A stretch of 8,047 nucleotides of DNA, taken from a virus (lineage: Duplodnaviria; Heunggongvirae; Uroviricota; Caudoviricetes). The notes beneath the pieces were generated by a model. The model saw only the letters and a program-made list of their open reading frames with translations. It ran no database searches and was not told the DNA's origin. The DNA lies in the IMG/VR virus record IMGVR_UViG_2609459846_000016; one strand, 5' to 3'. Position numbers and translations under genes: made by a program. This document shows, piece after piece, positions 2 to 8,047 of the stretch; the first letter of the stretch is position 1, and the number at the start of each line of letters is the position of its first letter.

Positions 2-214
2 CTGACCAATCAGCTGGTGCAGACGGTAAGGGGGTATATCCGCGAATGCCTGCAATGGATGATTGATGACGGTGTGGTGTCCCGTATTGATCTGGATATC
101 CGCCGCACCGGGATTAATGAACTGGGTAACAGTATCACTCTCTGGCGACGTGACGGACCGGTAATGATTTCTTTTGATAATCTGTGGAGTGCGATAACGC
201 ATGGCGGACAGTGA
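2..214 (+). CDS. Phage baseplate protein, 3' end only (gene continues upstream of the window); probably the gp46/GPW-like wedge subunit that precedes gp47 in Mu-like tail modules
   Basis: Frame is open from the first base of the window to TGA at 212-214; the track shows only the last 65 aa (from an internal GTG at 17). It is co-oriented with the downstream baseplate J-like gene, whose ATG at 201 overlaps it by 14 nt. Identity is inferred from gene order only; I do not recognise motifs in the 70 visible residues. Confidence 0.45.
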   Translation: MTNQLVQTVRGYIRECLQWMIDDGVVSRIDLDIRRTGINELGNSITLWRRDGPVMISFDNLWSAITHGGQ

Positions 215-1283
215 ATTTCAGCGCCCGACGCTGGCAGAAAATATCAGTATGCTCCGTAACGATTTATTCGCCAGGCTGGACGTCAGTGACCCACTCCGGC
301 GCATGGATGAAGACGTGCGGGCAAAGGTGTATGCGGCGGCGCTGCATACGGTTTACGGTTACATCGATTATCTGGCAATGAACATACTGCCTGACCGGTG
401 TGATGAATCCTGGCTGGCGCGACATGCTGCGATGAAACGGTGTCCGCGCAAGGGGGCCACGGCTGCCAGCGGGTATATGCGCTGGGAAGATGTCAGCGAT
501 GACCTGAAGGTGACCGCCGGGAGTGTTATTCAGCGCGATGACCTGGTTCAGTACACAGCAACTGCCGATGCAACCAGCTCCAGTGGTGTCCTGCGCGTGC
601 CGATCGCCTGCTCAACTGCAGGTGCGGTCGGTAATGCTGACGACGGTACGGCATTAATCCTGGTCACGCCGGTGAATGGTCTGCCGTCGTCTGGTGTGGC
701 TGATACCCTGACCGGCGGATTCGATACTGAAGATCTGGAAACGTGGCGCGCCCGCGTCATTGAGCGGTATTACTGGACGCCTCAGGGCGGGGCTGACGGG
801 GATTATGTCGTCTGGGCTAAAGAAGTGCCTGGTATTACGCGCGCATGGACATACCGTCACTGGAGAGGAATAGGAACGGTAGGGGTGATGGTGGCGACAA
901 ACGATCCGGAACATCCGGCTCCGGATGAAAGCGTCATTAATGCAGTCAGAGAGCACATTCTTCCTCTGACACCGGTTGCCGGAAGCGGATTGTATGTATT
1001 CGGTGCCACAGAAAAAGTCATCCCGATGACGATTGCATTATCGAAAGACACACCGCAGATCAGGACTGCAATAAAAGCAGAGCTGAATGCACTGATGTTA
1101 CGGGATGGTGTGCCAGAGGGGCGTATGTATCTGTCCAGAATCAGTGAGGCCATCAGTTTGTCTGCTGGTGAAGTGGCCCACCGGTTAATCGTCCCTTCAT
1201 CGGATATTGACCTGGGGGAGACCGAGCTTCCGGTGCTCGGCGAGATCACCTGGCAGGCTTATGACCCGGCAAGGAGTAAATAA
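201..1283 (+). CDS. Baseplate J / gp47-family baseplate assembly protein
   Basis: 360-aa ORF. The N-terminal region (MADSEFQRPTLAEN...VYGYIDYLAMNILPD...) matches the pattern I recall for Mu gp47 / P2 gpJ-type proteins. Its TAA stop (1281-1283) overlaps the next ATG (1283) as TAATG. GC is roughly 50-55 percent, like the other baseplate genes. Confidence 0.8.
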   Translation: MADSEFQRPTLAENISMLRNDLFARLDVSDPLRRMDEDVRAKVYAAALHTVYGYIDYLAMNILPDRCDESWLARHAAMKRCPRKGATAASGYMRWEDVSDDLKVTAGSVIQRDDLVQYTATADATSSSGVLRVPIACSTAGAVGNADDGTALILVTPVNGLPSSGVADTLTGGFDTEDLETWRARVIERYYWTPQGGADGDYVVWAKEVPGITRAWTYRHWRGIGTVGVMVATNDPEHPAPDESVINAVREHILPLTPVAGSGLYVFGATEKVIPMTIALSKDTPQIRTAIKAELNALMLRDGVPEGRMYLSRISEAISLSAGEVAHRLIVPSSDIDLGETELPVLGEITWQAYDPARSK

Positions 1284-2242
1284 TGGATTCGTTACAGGAT
1301 GATTATAAAAAGCTGCTGTACGGACTGATGCCGCCGGGGCCTGCATGGAGCGATACCGACGGCGTGCTTGATGGTCTGGCACCATCGCTTGTACGTGTTC
1401 ATCAGCGGGCTGATGAACTGATGGCTGAAATCGATCCTGGTCAGTCAACAGAGCTGATTGAACGTTATGAAGAATTGTATGGTTTACCTGACACCTGCTC
1501 TCCTGTTGGAGCCCAGACATTACGCCAGCGTCAGCAACGGCTGGAAGCAAAAGCCAATGTGGCTGGTGGCATAAATGAGCAGTTCTTCCTGGAGCAGCTT
1601 GAGGCGCTGGGATATACCGGCGTGACGATCGAACAGTTCCAGCACCTGGATGCAAGCCCCGATCCGGAATGGGGTGATCGCTGGCGTTATTTCTGGCGTG
1701 TGACGTTGCCGGTGGATGCCGGTGCTCAGTGGCAGACATGTTCGGACACCTGTAACACACCGATCCGGACGTGGGGTGATACGGTTGCGGAATGCGTGAT
1801 TAATAAATTATGTCCGTCGCATACTGTTGTCCTTTTTGCATATCCGGATGAGTCTGGTGAAGTGCAACAAGCCGCCCTGACTATAAACAGCCTCTCCTTT
1901 CAGGCCGGACACAAGACGACTGAGCCATTAGCGATTAATCATACAGGTGTTCATTTTGCGGTTGTTCCGGCACTGACAGGTAAGCCGCTGACAATTAACC
2001 GGATTAACTTTTATGCCGCCCGTCCGATGGCAGAGCCACTGGTACTCAGCAGGGCGCAATTGCACTCAGGTCTGCCGACAACGGACCCCATGACCATGAA
2101 CAGCGCACAGTTGCAGACGGGATACAGGACCCGCTCCCCCGTACCAGTTAACAGTATGCAGTTGCAGACAGCCAGCAGACCCCGTGAACCGTTATTGATT
2201 AATCACCCGGGACTGCATTTTGCTGTGGTCACGTCCGAATGA
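1283..2242 (+). CDS. DUF2313/YmfQ-like phage tail protein (Mu gp48 / P2 gpI position) with a ~125-aa repeat-containing C-terminal extension
   Basis: 319-aa ORF with AAGGAG at 1271-1276, 6 nt before the ATG. N-terminal residues 1 to ~190 (LLYGLMPPGPAW ... ELIERYEELYGLPD ...) resemble YmfQ-type proteins, which I recall as ~190-200 aa. Residues ~195-319 carry internal repeats: EPLAINHTGVHFAVV and EPLLINHPGLHFAVV, and four copies of an xTxNSxQLQ-type unit. The matching DNA-level direct repeats are visible at about 1921-1975 and 2183-2240. Confidence 0.75.
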   Translation: MDSLQDDYKKLLYGLMPPGPAWSDTDGVLDGLAPSLVRVHQRADELMAEIDPGQSTELIERYEELYGLPDTCSPVGAQTLRQRQQRLEAKANVAGGINEQFFLEQLEALGYTGVTIEQFQHLDASPDPEWGDRWRYFWRVTLPVDAGAQWQTCSDTCNTPIRTWGDTVAECVINKLCPSHTVVLFAYPDESGEVQQAALTINSLSFQAGHKTTEPLAINHTGVHFAVVPALTGKPLTINRINFYAARPMAEPLVLSRAQLHSGLPTTDPMTMNSAQLQTGYRTRSPVPVNSMQLQTASRPREPLLINHPGLHFAVVTSE

Positions 2243-2265
2243 CATAAAATAAAAGGAGAGCCGCT

Positions 2266-3315
2266 TTGAATATTATTAAACTCGAAAGTTTTCGACAAAT
2301 TCCGGCGAATGAGGGATTGTGCGAGAACTATTATTCAACAAATATTATTTCAGCACTGAACGAAAACGGTGTCACGCTTATCAATGATATGTCCGGTTCT
2401 GTAACATCCGTCTGTCGTGGCACTCAGGCCGTAAATACTGTAGAAAGAACGGGGCTGATTTTTACGACACCCTCATATGTCACACTGTACAGCACACTTC
2501 CGGACTTAAAAGCCTCAGCTGTACAGCTGGGATTTCGTCTGACATTAAGTGCGGGAAAGAAATATTCATCTTCGCCATCCCACATCAGGATTAATGGCTA
2601 TTCATTTACAACCCCGTATCCTGATGAAGCAGCCAGTTATTACTATGAAATTTTCGCAACGCGAAACGAAAACGGCTATGTCTCAGCCAGTCTGTACTGC
2701 AACCGCTCATTAGTTGGAAATGCATCGTTTTATGTATCAGATGACCGGACTGACAAAATTCAGGTGAGTATTGGTAGTGGTGACAATATTTTTTCATCGG
2801 GTGCATCCGGCACGTTAATGCTGGGTGATATGTACTGTGGAACAGTGACATACGGTAGAAATAATAGTGCAGAACCCGCCCTGCTCGGAAGCATTGAGGT
2901 CAGATACAGCCCGGTAACGGCATTTACCGGTGGAAGCGCCAAAAACTCACTGAATAAAGATATTGTCACGGGGCTGAACACCTCTGACAGCGAGGCCGGA
3001 TATCTGATGCTCTCGCCCTCCCTGAATGCAGCACAGGCCACGTTTGGTGCGGTGGATAACAGCAACAGTGATGTTGTGGCTGTTATGGCCTCGGTCACTT
3101 ACCGCGGTGCTGATGCCCCCAATAACCGCCTGGCCTGGAAAGTGAAAAATGGCAGCCATGCAGGCGCAACGATTACAGAGAATGGCGTACAAAGCGACAC
3201 AAACAGCTGGACGACTGTCTCACAGAGTTTTATGGCCCAGCCAGGCGGAGAAACGCCTTTCACAAAGGGTGAACTGACTTTCACAGCGGAATTGTTTAAT
3301 CAGGCAAGGACATAA
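2266..3315 (+). CDS. Hypothetical protein, 349 aa, Ser/Thr/Asn/Gly/Tyr-rich; probable tail-associated or receptor-binding accessory protein, or a horizontally acquired cargo gene
   Basis: Long ORF starting at TTG 2266 with AGGAG at 2254-2258 (7-nt spacer). It sits 23 nt after the DUF2313 gene and 30 nt before the fibre gene, on the same strand. GC is visibly lower (about 40-45 percent) than the baseplate genes. No hydrophobic N-terminus or transmembrane stretch; composition suggests a beta-rich protein. I recognise no family. Confidence 0.6.
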   Translation: MNIIKLESFRQIPANEGLCENYYSTNIISALNENGVTLINDMSGSVTSVCRGTQAVNTVERTGLIFTTPSYVTLYSTLPDLKASAVQLGFRLTLSAGKKYSSSPSHIRINGYSFTTPYPDEAASYYYEIFATRNENGYVSASLYCNRSLVGNASFYVSDDRTDKIQVSIGSGDNIFSSGASGTLMLGDMYCGTVTYGRNNSAEPALLGSIEVRYSPVTAFTGGSAKNSLNKDIVTGLNTSDSEAGYLMLSPSLNAAQATFGAVDNSNSDVVAVMASVTYRGADAPNNRLAWKVKNGSHAGATITENGVQSDTNSWTTVSQSFMAQPGGETPFTKGELTFTAELFNQART

Positions 3316-3345
3316 TTCTGATATTTCATTCACGGGAGGTTTAAT

Positions 3346-4455
3346 ATGCACAGAATTGACACTCCGACAGCAGTTAAAGATAAATTTGGCCCGGGCAAGA
3401 ACGGATTTACTGACGGGAATATTCGTACAGGGCGTCATGCCACCTGGCTGAACAGTGCCATGTGGGATGCCCTTCAGGAGGAAATCTGTGGTGTCATTGA
3501 GAAGGCCGGGATAGAACTGAATAAAGAGGAACACGACCAGTTATATAAAGCCATATTATTACTGGTGGGCGGTGCAATTAACGAAGAGGCATTGCTGATA
3601 AAAAATAATCTTTCGGATGTCGAAGACAGTGATGAGGCTGTTGAAAACCTCGGATTAAAACCCACGGTGGATAAGGCAAAAAATGCCGTTCAGCGTGATG
3701 GAGACACCATGACCGGGGAGCTGAAAATCAGTGGTGTTAATGCACTGAGGATTTTCAACGAAGCCTTTGGTCTGATTTTTCGTCGTTCGGAAGAGTGTCT
3801 GCACCTCATTCCTACCCGGGAAAATCAGGGCGAGAGTGGTGATATTGGGCCGCTACGCCCCTTTACGCTTAATCTCAGGACCGGTCGCATAACTATGGGA
3901 CACGGTCTGGATGTTACAGAAGATGTATTTGCAGGCCGTTTAGCGATTAACAGCAGTAACGGAACGTGGATTCAGATGCGTGACAACAACGTTATTTTCG
4001 GGAAAAACAGGATAAATACTGATGCTGCTCAGGCGCTTCTGCGTCAGGATCATGCAGACAGAAAGTATTTCCTGGCTGGTCTTGGGAATAAGCAGTTTGG
4101 CATTTACATGATAAATAATAGCCGTACGGATAATGGTACGGACGGTCAGGCGTATATGGATGATGCGGGAAACTGGCGATGCGGGCGTCAGGTTATACCG
4201 TCAGACTACGGAAACTTCGATGCCCGCTACCAGACCAAAACAGGTGGCGTACAGAATTTTCAGTATACCAGTGAGGTGTTTTACAACCCGGGCGGGAACG
4301 AGCACAGCTGGACGTTTCGAGCACCTTCTGGTTGTGTTTTGTCAGGCATTAATGTTCAGGATACTGGCCGTAACTCTGCAGACAATATCGGTGGCGTGTA
4401 TTACAAACAGGCTCAGATTTATATTAATGGTGCATGGCGATCTGTATCAGGTTAA
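3346..4455 (+). CDS. Phage tail fibre protein (Mu S / P2 gpH-like)
   Basis: 369-aa ORF with GGGAGG at 3334-3339 before the ATG. Motifs shared with tail fibres as I recall them: ALLIKNNLSD, ENLGLKPTV...NAVQRDGDTMTGELKI (compare P2 H LGLQETVNRAGNAVQKNGDTLSGGL) and a C-terminal ...IYINGAWRSV. The ENLGL motif at 3641-3667 is the usual constant/variable junction. Confidence 0.85.
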   Translation: MHRIDTPTAVKDKFGPGKNGFTDGNIRTGRHATWLNSAMWDALQEEICGVIEKAGIELNKEEHDQLYKAILLLVGGAINEEALLIKNNLSDVEDSDEAVENLGLKPTVDKAKNAVQRDGDTMTGELKISGVNALRIFNEAFGLIFRRSEECLHLIPTRENQGESGDIGPLRPFTLNLRTGRITMGHGLDVTEDVFAGRLAINSSNGTWIQMRDNNVIFGKNRINTDAAQALLRQDHADRKYFLAGLGNKQFGIYMINNSRTDNGTDGQAYMDDAGNWRCGRQVIPSDYGNFDARYQTKTGGVQNFQYTSEVFYNPGGNEHSWTFRAPSGCVLSGINVQDTGRNSADNIGGVYYKQAQIYINGAWRSVSG

Positions 4456-4469
4456 TTAAGGAGAAAATA

Positions 4470-5000
4470 ATGGAACTCTCAAACATTACGCGTTACTACC
4501 CTGAAGACATGCCTTATGGTGACGGCATTCAGTATTTCCGTAGTGAAGACGGGCAGGATTTTTATGAATCACTGGATAAATTCACGAAGAAATACAAGCT
4601 GTGCACGCATCCTGAAACCGGCGTTATTTATTCCGTGGCGGAAGATGTATCCCGTCTTTATCCCGTTGGTTTTACCATTGTGGAAGTGGATGAACTACCG
4701 GATGGTTTTTGTATAGAGGCGCGCTGGTATTATAAAGACGGTGAAGTACTACCGGTCCCTGTTGATTACAGGCAGCAGGCAGAGTCGGAGCGTGCACGTC
4801 TTACTGCGATTGCTGAACGGGAAATATCCGATAAGAAGACGGATTTACTTTTGGGAATCATCGGTGATGAAGAAAAAGAAAAGCTGACAGTCTGGCGCAT
4901 TTACGCGAAATTGCTGCAGGCGATGGATTTCAGCACCATCACTGATAAAACCTCATATAACGCCATTGAATGGCCCGTCTCTCCGGAAGCCTCTTCCTGA
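4470..5000 (+). CDS. Tail fibre assembly protein (Tfa / Mu U / P2 gpG-like chaperone)
   Basis: 176 aa. ATG at 4470 is preceded by AGGAG at 4459-4463 and lies 14 nt after the fibre stop. The C-terminus (...KLTVWRIYAKLLQAMDFSTITDKTSYNAIEWPVSP) matches the conserved Tfa C-terminus, for example lambda Tfa ...APDIEWPAVP as I recall. The track start at 4434 overlaps the fibre gene and has no RBS, so 4470 is preferred. Confidence 0.85.
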   Translation: MELSNITRYYPEDMPYGDGIQYFRSEDGQDFYESLDKFTKKYKLCTHPETGVIYSVAEDVSRLYPVGFTIVEVDELPDGFCIEARWYYKDGEVLPVPVDYRQQAESERARLTAIAEREISDKKTDLLLGIIGDEEKEKLTVWRIYAKLLQAMDFSTITDKTSYNAIEWPVSPEASS

Positions 5001-5089
5001 TTTAATTTATCGCGAGAAAAATTATGTCTGTAGTGATATCAGGTGCGCTGACAGATGGCGCAGGCGCAGGTCGATCGCAATGACGAGAT

Positions 5090-5360
5090 TTATCGCCGTA
5101 GGAGGGAGATGAAGGAAGAACTGAGCAGTCTGGGGGATTTGAAGTCGATTAGGAATTTTATAGTGGAATAACAGAAGCCGCGGCACGTCGTATGCAAGAA
5201 CGCACCGCGGCAGGCACCAATATTTTTTGTGAAGGTATCTTTTCCCGGAATATCTGCGCCGTTCTGGTTTTTCTGTAATGCGCCAGAAGCCTGATTTACC
5301 GTTTCCTGTAAACCGAGGTTTTTGAGAATTGCCTCCGTGTCGTCTGAACGATATTTTTTC
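5090..5360 (-). pseudogene. Truncated remnant of an alternative tail-fibre segment (S'-like) in inverted orientation
   Basis: Minus-strand translation of about 5212-5360 gives KKYRSDDTEAILKNLGLQETVNQASGALQKNQNGADIPGKDTFTKNIGA, paralogous to the + strand fibre residues SDEAVENLGLKPTVDKAKNAVQRDGDTMTG. The frame then runs into non-fibre-like sequence and stops at 5090. There is no room for the rest of a fibre or a second assembly gene. The track ORF 5090..5467 starts inside the IS terminal repeats, so its first ~40 codons are not fibre-derived. Confidence 0.4.
5303..5328. other. Gin/Hin/Pin/Cin-family DNA-invertase crossover site (gix/hix-like)
   Basis: TTCCTGTAAACCGAGGTTTTTGAGAA is an imperfect palindrome about a central GA. 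It differs at 2 of 26 positions from the Mu gix sequence as I remember it (TTCCTGTAAACCGAGGTTTTGGATAA). On the minus strand it encodes N-L-G-L-Q-E, the fibre junction motif. Confidence 0.6.
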
Positions 5361-5409
5361 CCGCTTTCAGCAACAATCGCGGGCCAGAAAGTATGCAATA
5401 TAGTTATGT

Positions 5410-5542
5410 GCAAAATGGCATCTGAATCGATCGCAGTTTGGCATTCGAATCGATCATGATTTGGCATTCATCTCCGATCACAGTTTGGCATCACAATCGA
5501 TCACGATTTGGCATGCTTCCGATCATTGATTGGCATCCTGCC
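5410..5542. repeat. Left terminal multi-repeat array of the IS (5 tandem ~23-bp units plus a partial sixth)
   Basis: CGATC anchors at 5428, 5451, 5476, 5498 and 5520 (spacing 22-25 bp), each followed by (A/G)TTTGGCAT; a partial unit AAAATGGCATC lies at 5412-5422. Confidence 0.7.
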
Positions 5543-5610
5543 AGTCACTCCGGGAATTAACTCTTTTCACCACAGTCTCCATTGCCGTGTTTAAACCAGT
5601 GGAGACGTCA

Positions 5611-7176
5611 ATGTCCAGAAAGAGAAAATCCAGGAGCACTATGGAAACCTGTTTTAAGATCCTTCAGCTCAAGTTCGACAAGAAGCTGACTAACCGTTGT
5701 ATCGGACTGACGTTACACATCAGCGCCTCAACCGTTTTTGAGGTTCTTGCCCGCTTCAAAGCCTCTTCTCTGTCATGGCCATTACCTGCTGATATATCCC
5801 ATGACACGCTGGAGAAACTCATTTTTCCGCCCAAAGACACCTTTGCATCAGAGCTTGTAATGCCTGACATGTTGTACTTCGATACGGAAATGAGAAAACC
5901 AGGTGTGACGCGGCAACTGTTGTGGATGGAATACAAGGCACAGGCGGGTGACAAAGCGATGGGATACTCGCACTTCTGCCGTTGCTACCGGGAGTGGAAA
6001 AAAACGCGACGTCTCTCCATGCGCCAGGAGCATCGTGCCGGCGAAAAGCTTTTTATCGACTTCTGTGGTCCTACGGTTCCTGTTATTAATCCGGACACCG
6101 GTGAGATACGCCGCGTGGCAATCTTCGTGGCCGTAATGGGGGCGTCCAACTATACCTACGTTGAAGCGTGCGAAGGTCAGGACATGATGTCATGGTTAAA
6201 TGCCCACAGCCGTTGCCTGACCTTCCTGGGCGGCGTACCGAAGCTGCTCATCCCCGATAACCTCAGAAGCGCAGTGAAAAAGGCCGATCGCTATGAGCCT
6301 GTCATCAACGACAGTTATCAGGCACTGGCTGAGCACTATGGCACGGTTATCATCCCGGCCCGACCACGCAAACCTAAAGATAAACCAAAAGCAGAAAACG
6401 GCGTCCTCATCGTCGAACGATGGCTTCTTGCCCGCATCCGTAATGAAACCTTCCACACGCTCAGGGCGCTGAATGCGCGCCTTAGGGAGTTACTGACAGA
6501 CATGAATAACCGGCCAATGAAGGGGTACGGCAATCAAACCCGTGCAGAACGCTTCCGCATACTGGATGCGCCAGCACTCTCTCCGCTGCCTCTGGCACCT
6601 TATGAATACACGGAATACAAAGCTGTGAAGGTTGGCCCTGACTACCACGTTGAATATGCCCGTCACTGGTACTCCGTTCCACACGAACTGGTCGGTCAGC
6701 GTCTGTCACTGAAGGCGGGGCAGTCGGTGGTACAGCTCTGGCACAAGGGGCAGTGTGTGGCGCAACATCCGCGCAGCACACATGAATATAAACACACAAC
6801 CAATCCGCTTCACATGCCAGAGCGCCACCGGCAGCACGGGACATGGACACCGGAACGCCTGATCGAGCAGGGAAAACGTACGGGCCCGTCCACAGGCCGG
6901 GTGGTTGAATCCATGCTGAAGGCAAAACCCCATCCGGAACTGGCTTATCGTGCAGTTCTGGGGCTGCTGGCACTTCAGAAAAAATACGGCCCGGAACGGC
7001 TGGAAAAGGCCTGTTACGTTGCCCTGCACTATAACGCCCCTGACAGACGCTTTATCGACAATCTGCTGCGTCACCATCGGGAGAACCTGGAGCTTCCATT
7101 ATCCCGCCAGGGCGAACAACATCCGGCATATGCTTCAGAGCATGAAAACCTGCGTGGTCCGGGCTACTACCACTGA
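5611..7176 (+). CDS. istA: IS21-family transposase IstA (N-terminal HTH plus DDE integrase core)
   Basis: 521 aa from ATG 5611 (GGAGA at 5601-5605). Motifs typical of IstA: FIDFCGP, FVAVMGASNYTYVE, FLGGVPKLLIPDN, KPKAENGV. The track start at 5530 is a TTG inside the terminal repeats and is rejected. An alternative ATG at 5641 also has an AGGAG 4 nt upstream. Confidence 0.9.
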   Translation: MSRKRKSRSTMETCFKILQLKFDKKLTNRCIGLTLHISASTVFEVLARFKASSLSWPLPADISHDTLEKLIFPPKDTFASELVMPDMLYFDTEMRKPGVTRQLLWMEYKAQAGDKAMGYSHFCRCYREWKKTRRLSMRQEHRAGEKLFIDFCGPTVPVINPDTGEIRRVAIFVAVMGASNYTYVEACEGQDMMSWLNAHSRCLTFLGGVPKLLIPDNLRSAVKKADRYEPVINDSYQALAEHYGTVIIPARPRKPKDKPKAENGVLIVERWLLARIRNETFHTLRALNARLRELLTDMNNRPMKGYGNQTRAERFRILDAPALSPLPLAPYEYTEYKAVKVGPDYHVEYARHWYSVPHELVGQRLSLKAGQSVVQLWHKGQCVAQHPRSTHEYKHTTNPLHMPERHRQHGTWTPERLIEQGKRTGPSTGRVVESMLKAKPHPELAYRAVLGLLALQKKYGPERLEKACYVALHYNAPDRRFIDNLLRHHRENLELPLSRQGEQHPAYASEHENLRGPGYYH

Positions 7177-7192
7177 CAGAAGGAACAACAGT

Positions 7193-7948
7193 ATGAGTGA
7201 TAACCTGTTAAACAAACTGACCCAACTGAAACTCCCGGCGATGGCCGGGAGCCTGATACGGCAGCGGGAAACGCCTCAGACCTACGACGAACTGTCGTTC
7301 GAGGAAAGGCTGACGCTGCTGGTTGATGACGAGCTTCTGAGCAGGGAAAACAGCCGTGTGGCACGGTTGAGAAAAAATGCCGGCCTGAAATACCAGGCAA
7401 CACCGGAAGGGCTGCGCTATCCGGCCTCAAGAGGTCTGCGGGCTGAACAGATGAGAGAACTGCTGAACGGCCACTACATAACCCACAGGAAAAACCTGCT
7501 GATAACCGGTCCGACAGGATGTGGCAAGAGCTGGATAGCCAATGCACTGGGCGAACAGGCATGTCGACAGAAACACAGCGTCCGGTACTGTAGAACCGGG
7601 CGATTACTGGAACAACTGGCTCAGGGACGTGTTGATGGCAGCTGGCTGAAATATCTGAAACAGTTGCAAAAAATACAGGTTCTAATCCTGGACGATCTGG
7701 GGCTGGAACAGTTAAGTAACGCCCAGTGTAATGACCTTCTGGAGCTCATAGAGGATCGTTACGGACAAAGCAGCACGATAGTGGTAAGTCAGTTCCCGGT
7801 AGATAAATGGCATGGTCTGATGGAGAACCCAACAACAGCAGATGCCATCCTGGACAGACTGGTACATAACTCACACCGGGTGGTCCTTCAGGGAGAGTCA
7901 CTGAGGAAAAATCCCCCGGTAGTGGAAAGCAGCGAAAAAACGCGTTAA
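7193..7948 (+). CDS. istB: IS21-family helper ATPase IstB (DnaC-like AAA+)
   Basis: 251 aa from ATG 7193, 16 nt after the istA stop. Walker A GPTGCGKS and Walker B VLILDDLG are present. The track ORF begins at 6950, overlapping istA; 7193 is preferred. Confidence 0.9.
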   Translation: MSDNLLNKLTQLKLPAMAGSLIRQRETPQTYDELSFEERLTLLVDDELLSRENSRVARLRKNAGLKYQATPEGLRYPASRGLRAEQMRELLNGHYITHRKNLLITGPTGCGKSWIANALGEQACRQKHSVRYCRTGRLLEQLAQGRVDGSWLKYLKQLQKIQVLILDDLGLEQLSNAQCNDLLELIEDRYGQSSTIVVSQFPVDKWHGLMENPTTADAILDRLVHNSHRVVLQGESLRKNPPVVESSEKTR

Positions 7949-7974
7949 AAAGCGGTAGAAAAAGTTAAGTTCCC

Positions 7975-8047
7975 GGTTGATCGAATGGATGCGAATCGCT
8001 GATCGGACTTCGATGCCAATCCGTGATCGAATAGAGCGGAATACGCA
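7975..8047. repeat. Right-end terminal repeats of the IS (inverted copies of the left-end unit), truncated by the window edge
   Basis: The reverse complement of 8004-8027 is CGATCACGGATTGGCATCGAAGTC, and of about 7983-8003 is CGATCAGCGATTCGCATCCAT. Both match the left-end unit in inverted orientation. Only two units are visible before the window ends. Confidence 0.6.

Follow-up and report, generated by a model that had tools for sequence, protein, structure and literature searches.

A probable fossil crossover site in the fixed tail fibre gene of a phiP27-like prophage, and an orphan site probably from a separate, wrecked fibre switch

Introduction

Invertible tail fibre segments of the Mu type are built to a common plan. 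In the G segment of Mu (gixL/gixR, gin), in Yersinia phage vB_YpM_39 and in the E. coli phage-plasmid pTD225C4_47 the same order is found: the constant part of the fibre, a crossover site, an S-type tip, a chaperone gene, an inverted S'-type tip, a site and the invertase gene. The Mu gix sequence, TTATCCAAAACC-TC-GGTTTACAGGAA, stands at both ends of the G segment. The outer part of a half-site is the seat of the DNA-binding domain, as seen from the contacts made by Hin, and the Cin invertase of P1 uses diverged 'quasi-cix' sites at low frequency.

Two further systems bear on what becomes of such segments. The P segment of e14 (pixL/pixR, pinE) lies in a cryptic prophage of E. coli K-12 and still inverts (PMC4272514; PMC12529663). 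PinQ also inverts this segment, so that invertases can act in trans on the segments of cryptic prophages (PMC12529663). Gene H of P2, a phage that has neither an invertase nor an inverted partner site, carries a lone gix-like sequence at the junction of the constant and variable parts of its expressed fibre, and a variable part of the Mu S type follows it.

Here we analyse 8,047 nt of DNA (IMG/VR record IMGVR_UViG_2609459846_000016, Caudoviricetes), referred to below as the window, in which an expressed fibre gene contains a sequence resembling half of a gix-type site and a second such sequence lies downstream on the opposite strand.

Results

Gene content of the window

The prophage to which the window belongs is phiP27-like and has a Mu-type baseplate, and the window carries its right-hand end. 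Pfam matches identify a Baseplate_J gene (201-1283) and a Gp48/YmfQ-like gene starting at 1283, which are followed by an ORF without assigned function (2266-3315, 349 aa) that has no Pfam match and is a full-length member of phrog_8291. The tail fibre gene (3346-4455, plus strand, 369 aa) is intact, of the phiP27 L54 type and a full-length member of phrog_6859 (tail fibre), and the tail fibre assembly chaperone gene that serves the expressed fibre lies at 4470-5000 on the same strand (Pfam Caudo_TAP, phrog_136 and RefSeq annotation in relatives). Beyond it the genes are fragmentary. Blastn and a RefSeq pseudogene annotation identify 5055-5215 (plus strand) as a remnant of a second chaperone gene, made up of the last 117 nt of a phiP27 L57-type gene (DUF4376) and 44 nt of downstream DNA. 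On the minus strand, 5206-5302 is the truncated start of an alternative fibre tip of the Mu S' or G(-) type, approximately 32 codons long (QETVNQASGALQKNQNGADIPGKDTFTKNIGA), and 5303-5328 is a well preserved gix-type crossover site. The plus strand then continues with the leader (5329-5392) and the start (ATG at 5393) of a serine invertase gene, of which 5 codons plus 1 nt are present up to 5408, and with an IS21-family insertion sequence (istA, istB; 5409-8047, plus strand; Pfam rve / Mu-transpos_C_2 and IstB_IS21). A minus-strand ORF at 5090-5467 was rejected as a gene because it consists of the tip stub, read-through and the invertase leader.

The interval from the gp48/YmfQ-like gene to the fibre gene is approximately 1.45 kb longer in the window than in phiP27 (1870-3345), which is accounted for by a C-terminal extension of the gp48-like ORF and by the 349-aa ORF at 2266-3315. 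The extension carries a 45-nt direct repeat (1921-1965 and 2185-2229), and in relatives the gp48-like gene is annotated as truncated in RefSeq.

The nearest relatives that are free of the IS are ETEC chromosomes, in which a complete-looking phiP27-like prophage lies between potB and potC. That of E. coli TD225-C4 is complete-looking over approximately 43 kb. Its right end holds lambdoid leftovers (chaperone fragments and a SAM-dependent methyltransferase) of a kind that is present in 4,767 of 5,426 E. coli genomes.

The sequence at the fibre junction

The N-terminal baseplate-attachment part of the fibre ends at approximately 3651, and the distal part is related to Mu S (G+), P2 H and P1 S. 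Lying across this constant/variable junction of the intact gene, at the position homologous to gixL, is the 26-bp plus-strand sequence 3638-3663, CTGTTGAAAACC-TC-GGATTAAAACCC, with its TC core at 3650-3651 and its half-sites also written CTGTTGAAAACC and GGGTTTTAATCC; its codons read V-E-N-L-G-L-K-P. The sequence-only reading that drew attention to the locus had correctly reported GAAAACCTCGGATTAAAACCC at an ENLGLKPTV junction (3643-3663, encoding ENLGLKP), with a left half that matches the crossover consensus and a diverged right half. A position weight matrix made from 11 distinct bona fide half-sites (Mu, P1, e14, vB_YpM_39 and pTD225C4_47) bears this out: the outer, constant-side half scores 9.6 bits, within the top 0.03% of 12-mers, as against -3.6 bits for the inner, variable-side half, a score equalled by approximately 8% of random 12-mers. 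The outer six bases of the inner half are GGGTTT, in place of TTCCTG or TTCTCC. As a full site the sequence matches Mu gix at 16 of 26 positions and scores 6.0 bits, only fourth in the window. Chance sequences at 2273-2298 (11.2 bits) and 172-197 (8.1 bits) outscore it, so matrix hits of this level are uninformative alone.

We take the plus-strand sequence as the relic of a gix/pix-type site on the strength of its positional homology to Mu gixL, which it shares with the P2 H relic. It aligns codon for codon and in frame with Mu S and P2 H at I/V-Q/E-N/Y-L-G-L, and the N-L-G-L codons AAC CTC GGN TTA are common to all three genes. The inner half matches Mu at 6 of 12 positions, and the next 70 nt match Mu S of the G(+) type at 41 of 70, compared with 26 of 70 for the S' type. 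In Mu itself the S and S' half-sites are identical (12/12) although their flanks agree at just 26 of 70 positions (approximately 37%). With 6/12 identity, like its 59% flank, the inner half has evolved without constraint as a site and drifts like the neighbouring coding DNA. The 26 bp now serve only as codons and, to judge from their sequence, appear to be inactive as a site.

phiP27 L54 has the same 26-mer, without a change, in surroundings that differ by 9.5%, and 53 IMG/VR contigs contain an exact copy of the central 24 bases. Among the 33 contigs with at least 1.7 kb of downstream DNA, a partner site was present in one, in which the arrangement is that of the window with a strong partner; phiP27 and the other 32 have no partner. 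None of the 53 contigs gave an invertase match within the DNA fetched, and a search of IMG/VR for a hybrid of the phiP27-type outer half with an intact inner half returned no match. That phiP27 and, for the central 24 bases, 53 contigs share this form shows the divergence to be old and lineage-wide, and it predates the window prophage. The description of the plus-strand copy as a decayed partner is only partly supported and misleads, as its divergence belongs to the whole lineage and is not a consequence of the loss of this particular invertase.

One Salmonella contig (QAUD01000038) has a fibre gene of the same N-terminal family with a good pix/cix-like site, TTCTCCAGAACG-TT-GGTTTAGAAGAA, at 6290-6315. 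The contig ends approximately 115 nt past this site, as would be expected if an invertible segment had broken the assembly.

The minus-strand site and its surroundings

Read on the minus strand, 5303-5328 is TTCTCAAAAACC-TC-GGTTTACAGGAA, identical to Mu gix at 24 of 26 positions. Its half-sites score 16.0 and 12.9 bits, and the total of 28.9 bits is by far the best in the window. It agrees at 25 of 26 positions with the right-hand site of the intact vB_YpM_39 and pTD225C4_47 systems, each of which is complete, with fibre, chaperone, inverted chaperone, inverted tip, site and invertase. The sequence-only reading had placed this copy at 5297-5322, and had read a minus-strand peptide, SDDTEAILK, out of what is the non-coding leader between the site and the invertase start at 5393; both points needed correction. 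The adjoining tip stub (5206-5302) is 94% identical to Mu S'v/gixR and matches vB_YpM_39 at 95 of 97 positions, and window positions 5206-5408 show 95.6% identity to the part of vB_YpM_39 that begins with the inverted tip, takes in the right-hand site and reaches the first codons of hin, which is intact in that phage. There is no inverted chaperone gene in the window. The minus-strand sequence is an orphan right-hand site, probably the end of a different, destroyed switch.

In the IS-free relatives the invertase is a pseudogene. Its translation begins MQYSYVMMSTFDQNMELQAEVLRW and stops at codon 25, the YxRVS motif has an R-to-M substitution, and an internal deletion follows. Over its first 108 nt this remnant is 76% identical to the intact gene. 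The difference from the site region, which is approximately 96% identical, had suggested that the site was undergoing conversion; the idea was abandoned because identity in ungapped windows falls gradually, probably through indels. Switches of this kind also carry, towards the 5' end of the invertase gene, a Fis-dependent recombinational enhancer that acts in cis. The annotated enhancer of P1 spans nt 19-90 of cin; the equivalent stretch would lie past the IS and outside the window, and in the relatives it falls within the first 108 nt of the remnant, of 76% identity.

The element that splits the invertase pseudogene, in codon 6, has the features of the IS21 family, namely istA (DDE transposase) followed by istB (AAA+ helper) and terminal inverted repeats with repeated motifs. 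It has TGC...GCA ends, a repeat family at 5405-5519 and inverted repeat pairs; comparison with another copy, one flanked by a 6-bp target duplication in strain 99-3165, fixed its boundaries. It runs up to the final base of the window (8047), which probably breaks off there because a repeat interrupted the assembly. No IS21-family element occupies this position in the complete E. coli genomes of the collection.

Several insertions have arisen independently around the start of the dead invertase gene (approximately 5382-5410): the IS21-family element of the window and, within approximately 25 bp of it, an IS66-family element in three strains (E200086, 100117 and 100248). In Z0117EC0005 a partial ISEc62 lies within the fibre gene itself.

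pTD225C4_47 is a phage-plasmid of approximately 47 kb in TD225-C4. Its fibre inversion system is apparently intact, with sites at locus positions 2945-2970 and 6013-6038, and the inner half-sites differ at 2 of 12 positions (GGTTTGCAGAAA and GGTTTACAGGAA). Several other carriers of the chromosomal locus have plasmids like it.

Comparison of the two copies

The plus- and minus-strand copies are in inverted orientation, 1,664 bp apart, and have the same 2-bp core when read from outer to inner half (TC, at 3650-3651 and at 5315-5316 on the minus strand). They differ at 6 of 12 positions in the inner halves and at 4 of 12 in the outer halves. It had been claimed that active systems keep their two sites nearly identical. 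This is true of the inner halves and cores, which show 0-2 differences in working systems, whereas between their outer halves P1, e14 and vB_YpM_39 show 4-5 differences in 12 positions.

Similarity of approximately 75% had also been said to continue outward on both sides of the two copies. An arm of 34 nt is indeed 74% identical (25/34), but the 70 nt inward of it agree at 26 positions, which is background, and on the outside the local alignment of the flanks is marginal (p ~0.016). An inverted repeat of 25/34 was equalled in 5.5% of shuffles of the window. We therefore dropped repeat statistics as a basis for the relic claim, the flank alignments being marginal or non-significant. The one-codon indel reported between the copies did not hold up either: the peptide strings quoted for it differ by three residues, and the gap in a MAFFT alignment is 6 nt.

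The DNA between and around the copies is a mosaic. Blastn matches to phiP27 cover 3336-3885, 4852-5065 and 5055-5215; the fibre gene is 90.5% identical to L54 over 3336-3885 and 74% identical to Mu S over 3895-4230. The joints lie at approximately 3709 and 3886 and at two microhomology junctions, 5055-5065 and approximately 5203-5215. The suggestion that the variable part was replaced by recombination was thus right about the mosaic nature of the gene and wrong about the place, as all of these joints are downstream of the plus-strand site and none is at it.

At the first microhomology junction, phiP27 L56-L57 (a second fibre gene and its chaperone gene) have been deleted through 11 nt of microhomology, ATGGCGCAGGC, at 5055-5065. 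This deletion is common to phiP27-like prophages at yecE and at tRNA-Ser/hya, which have the fibre, chaperone and L57 stub as in the window; no invertase fragment or partner site was found in either. Homology of phiP27 and the yecE prophage to the window ends at 5215, and that of the tRNA-Ser prophage at 5155. The 5215 end lies in a shared CGCGGC(A/T)GGC near 5203-5215, and this is where the inverted stub starts. Judged by these junctions, the two copies were probably brought together by illegitimate recombination and were never a working pair.

Orientation of the locus

Among the testable requirements of a switch, the matching core is the only one present at this locus. There are not two inverted 26-bp sites each with two recognisable 12-bp half-sites, as the inner half of the plus-strand copy is at background; no intact serine invertase stands beside either site; of the two complete tips on opposite strands, with a chaperone for each, that a switch needs, the minus-strand one breaks off at 5206; and a single orientation is seen among genomes. 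The inverted junction, searched for with a query in which the inverted stub follows directly on the constant part, at a coverage of at least 80%, was found in 0 of 5,426 complete E. coli genomes, and the best-matching carriers among the matches listed are collinear with the window.

The carriers of both copies are closely related ETEC lineages, 13 of which share a 447-nt remnant at 100% identity, and they are consequently not independent samples of orientation. In at least six of them, TD225-C4 included, there is also a phage-plasmid whose invertase is intact and closely related. That inverted isomers are absent despite an invertase available in trans in these carriers is mildly informative, though the strains are closely related. 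We infer that this locus does not invert. The proposal that the expressed fibre is locked in one orientation is supported, more strongly than the sequence alone could show, given the lost inner half, the tip of approximately 32 codons, the dead invertase and the lack of the inverted junction in all 5,426 genomes.

Discussion

We consider it probable, at roughly 0.72, that the window holds a fossil Gin/Pin-type site in a fixed fibre gene together with an orphan site of a separate, wrecked switch, and that the two do not form a working pair. According to this interpretation, 3638-3663 would descend from a crossover site of the Gin/Pin type that once lay between a constant fibre base and an exchangeable tip, and in the phiP27-type fibre lineage the 26 bp would have ceased to act as a recombination site long ago. 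What survives is the constant-side half with the 2-bp core, in which the conserved E-N-L-G junction motif is encoded; this half is probably maintained by selection at the protein level. A fragment of the right end of a switch, comprising a tip stub, a site and an invertase leader and start close to those of working phage-plasmid systems, would then have become attached to the right end of a phiP27-like tail module by illegitimate recombination at approximately 10 nt of microhomology. After the joining the invertase gene presumably decayed and, in this genome, was split by the IS21-family element.

A doubt that bears on the first step is whether the plus-strand sequence was ever a site, since a half-gix match could arise from the conserved ENLGL motif. 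N-L-G-L-K is nearly invariant over a broad family of fibre N-terminal domains, many members of which have gp53-like tips and no invertase (junction-motif proteins from a search with the first 135 fibre residues, in which all matches were at most 237 aa), and a sequence ranking fourth as a full site in its own window would sit well with coincidence. However, a distant member of the family encodes NLGLK with other codons (AAT CTT GGT CTG) and has no likeness to gix, from which it follows that the match reflects descent and not coding constraint alone. The codons shared with Mu and P2, together with downstream DNA that has 59% identity with the beginning of the variable part of Mu S, indicate homology by descent to a gixL-bearing gene, and we think coincidence unlikely. 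If the sequence is a relic, the two copies might still be the left and right sites of a single invertible segment, the left one having decayed in place after the invertase was lost. Their inverted orientation, identical TC cores and spacing of 1,664 bp in a Mu-like layout, with the expressed tip of the G(+) type and the inverted stub of the G(-) type, are what such a history would leave, and the related e14 module shows exactly this layout. Against it, the diverged 26-mer is already present in phiP27, and its central 24 bases in 53 contigs, almost all without a partner and none with an invertase match in the DNA fetched; the minus-strand fragment begins at the microhomology junction where phiP27-type homology stops; and the identity of 95-98% between stub plus site and the working phage-plasmid systems points to a later, separate origin. 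Decay in place is accordingly given a small share of belief, about that allowed to coincidence. The data lean towards the diverged site being older than the juxtaposition of the copies. By analogy with e14, whose homologous baseplate module has a complete switch in the same place, a common ancestor with a working pair is conceivable.

It may also be asked whether the plus-strand copy is a quasi-site in use, at which an invertase supplied in trans occasionally inverts 3652-5314 and joins the fibre base to the 32-codon stub and its read-through. PinQ acts in trans on the e14 P segment (PMC12529663), the cores match, and a phage-plasmid with an intact and closely related invertase is present in TD225-C4 and in at least five further carriers. 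The central 20 bp of the plus-strand copy are within the tolerance reported for the Gin and Hin catalytic domains, with one A-to-T change at positions 6-4 and the CC and core kept (PMC3985619). What weighs against such use is that the inner half, at -3.6 bits, has lost its outer six bases, where the DNA-binding domain sits, that the inverted junction is missing from all 5,426 genomes, the carriers of a trans invertase included, and that an enhancer placed as in P1 cin would be on the far side of the IS here, and in the relatives within a mutated pseudogene. Quasi-site use seems to us quite unlikely, and it is very improbable that the diverged and the orphan site do recombine at low frequency when an invertase is provided by the phage-plasmid or by another prophage. 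If trans-driven inversion did take place, the fibre base would be fused to a short stub and the prophage fibre would be switched off or re-purposed, an outcome comparable to the PinQ-driven inversion of e14 that yields an anti-phage chimera.

Returning to the preferred interpretation of a fossil site beside an orphan site of separate origin, the locus should be annotated as a fixed phiP27-type fibre with an orphan gix-type site, a dead invertase and an IS, and not as a phase-variable host-range switch. Its importance beyond correct annotation is small. It offers a clean case of the death of a switch, in which the inner half drifts with the coding DNA once inversion stops while the half encoding ENLG stays, and it illustrates how little a half-site match within a fibre gene says in favour of an inversion system. 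A caveat is that intact orphan sites, where the strain has a live, related phage-plasmid invertase as well, could in principle give rare rearrangements.

Set against the Mu-type systems of Mu, vB_YpM_39 and pTD225C4_47, the window retains a minus-strand site that matches gix at 24 of 26 positions and a stub that is 94-98% identical. Unlike them it has an alternative tip of just 32 codons, no second, inverted chaperone, an invertase that is dead and split by an IS, and a left site without its inner half; a same-strand stub of a second chaperone gene lies in between. With e14 it shares residence in a cryptic prophage, a Mu-like baseplate module (YmfQ/gp48 family) and the position of the fibre switch at the right end. 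The working sites of e14 differ at 5 of 12 positions in their outer halves, but their inner halves are identical and pinE is live, and the window has neither of these. The L54-L57 module of phiP27 resembles it in the fibre with the identical 26-mer, the chaperone and the L56/L57 ends, at approximately 90% identity. phiP27 differs in having a second complete fibre/chaperone pair and no invertase fragment, whereas the window has lost L56-L57 and gained the orphan-site fragment and the IS. The kind of feature described here is already known, in a decayed state, and gene H of P2 is the precedent for a lone relic site: there as in the window, the expressed fibre has a single gix-like sequence where its constant part meets a variable part of the Mu S type. 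The constant part of the window fibre (MHRIDTPTA..., phiP27/SfV type) belongs to a family other than that of P2 H, and the P2 relic, TTATCGAATATC-TC-GGTTTACAGGAA, is much the better preserved of the two, matching gix at 23 of 26 positions with a perfect inner half, compared with 16 of 26 and an unrecognisable inner half in the window.
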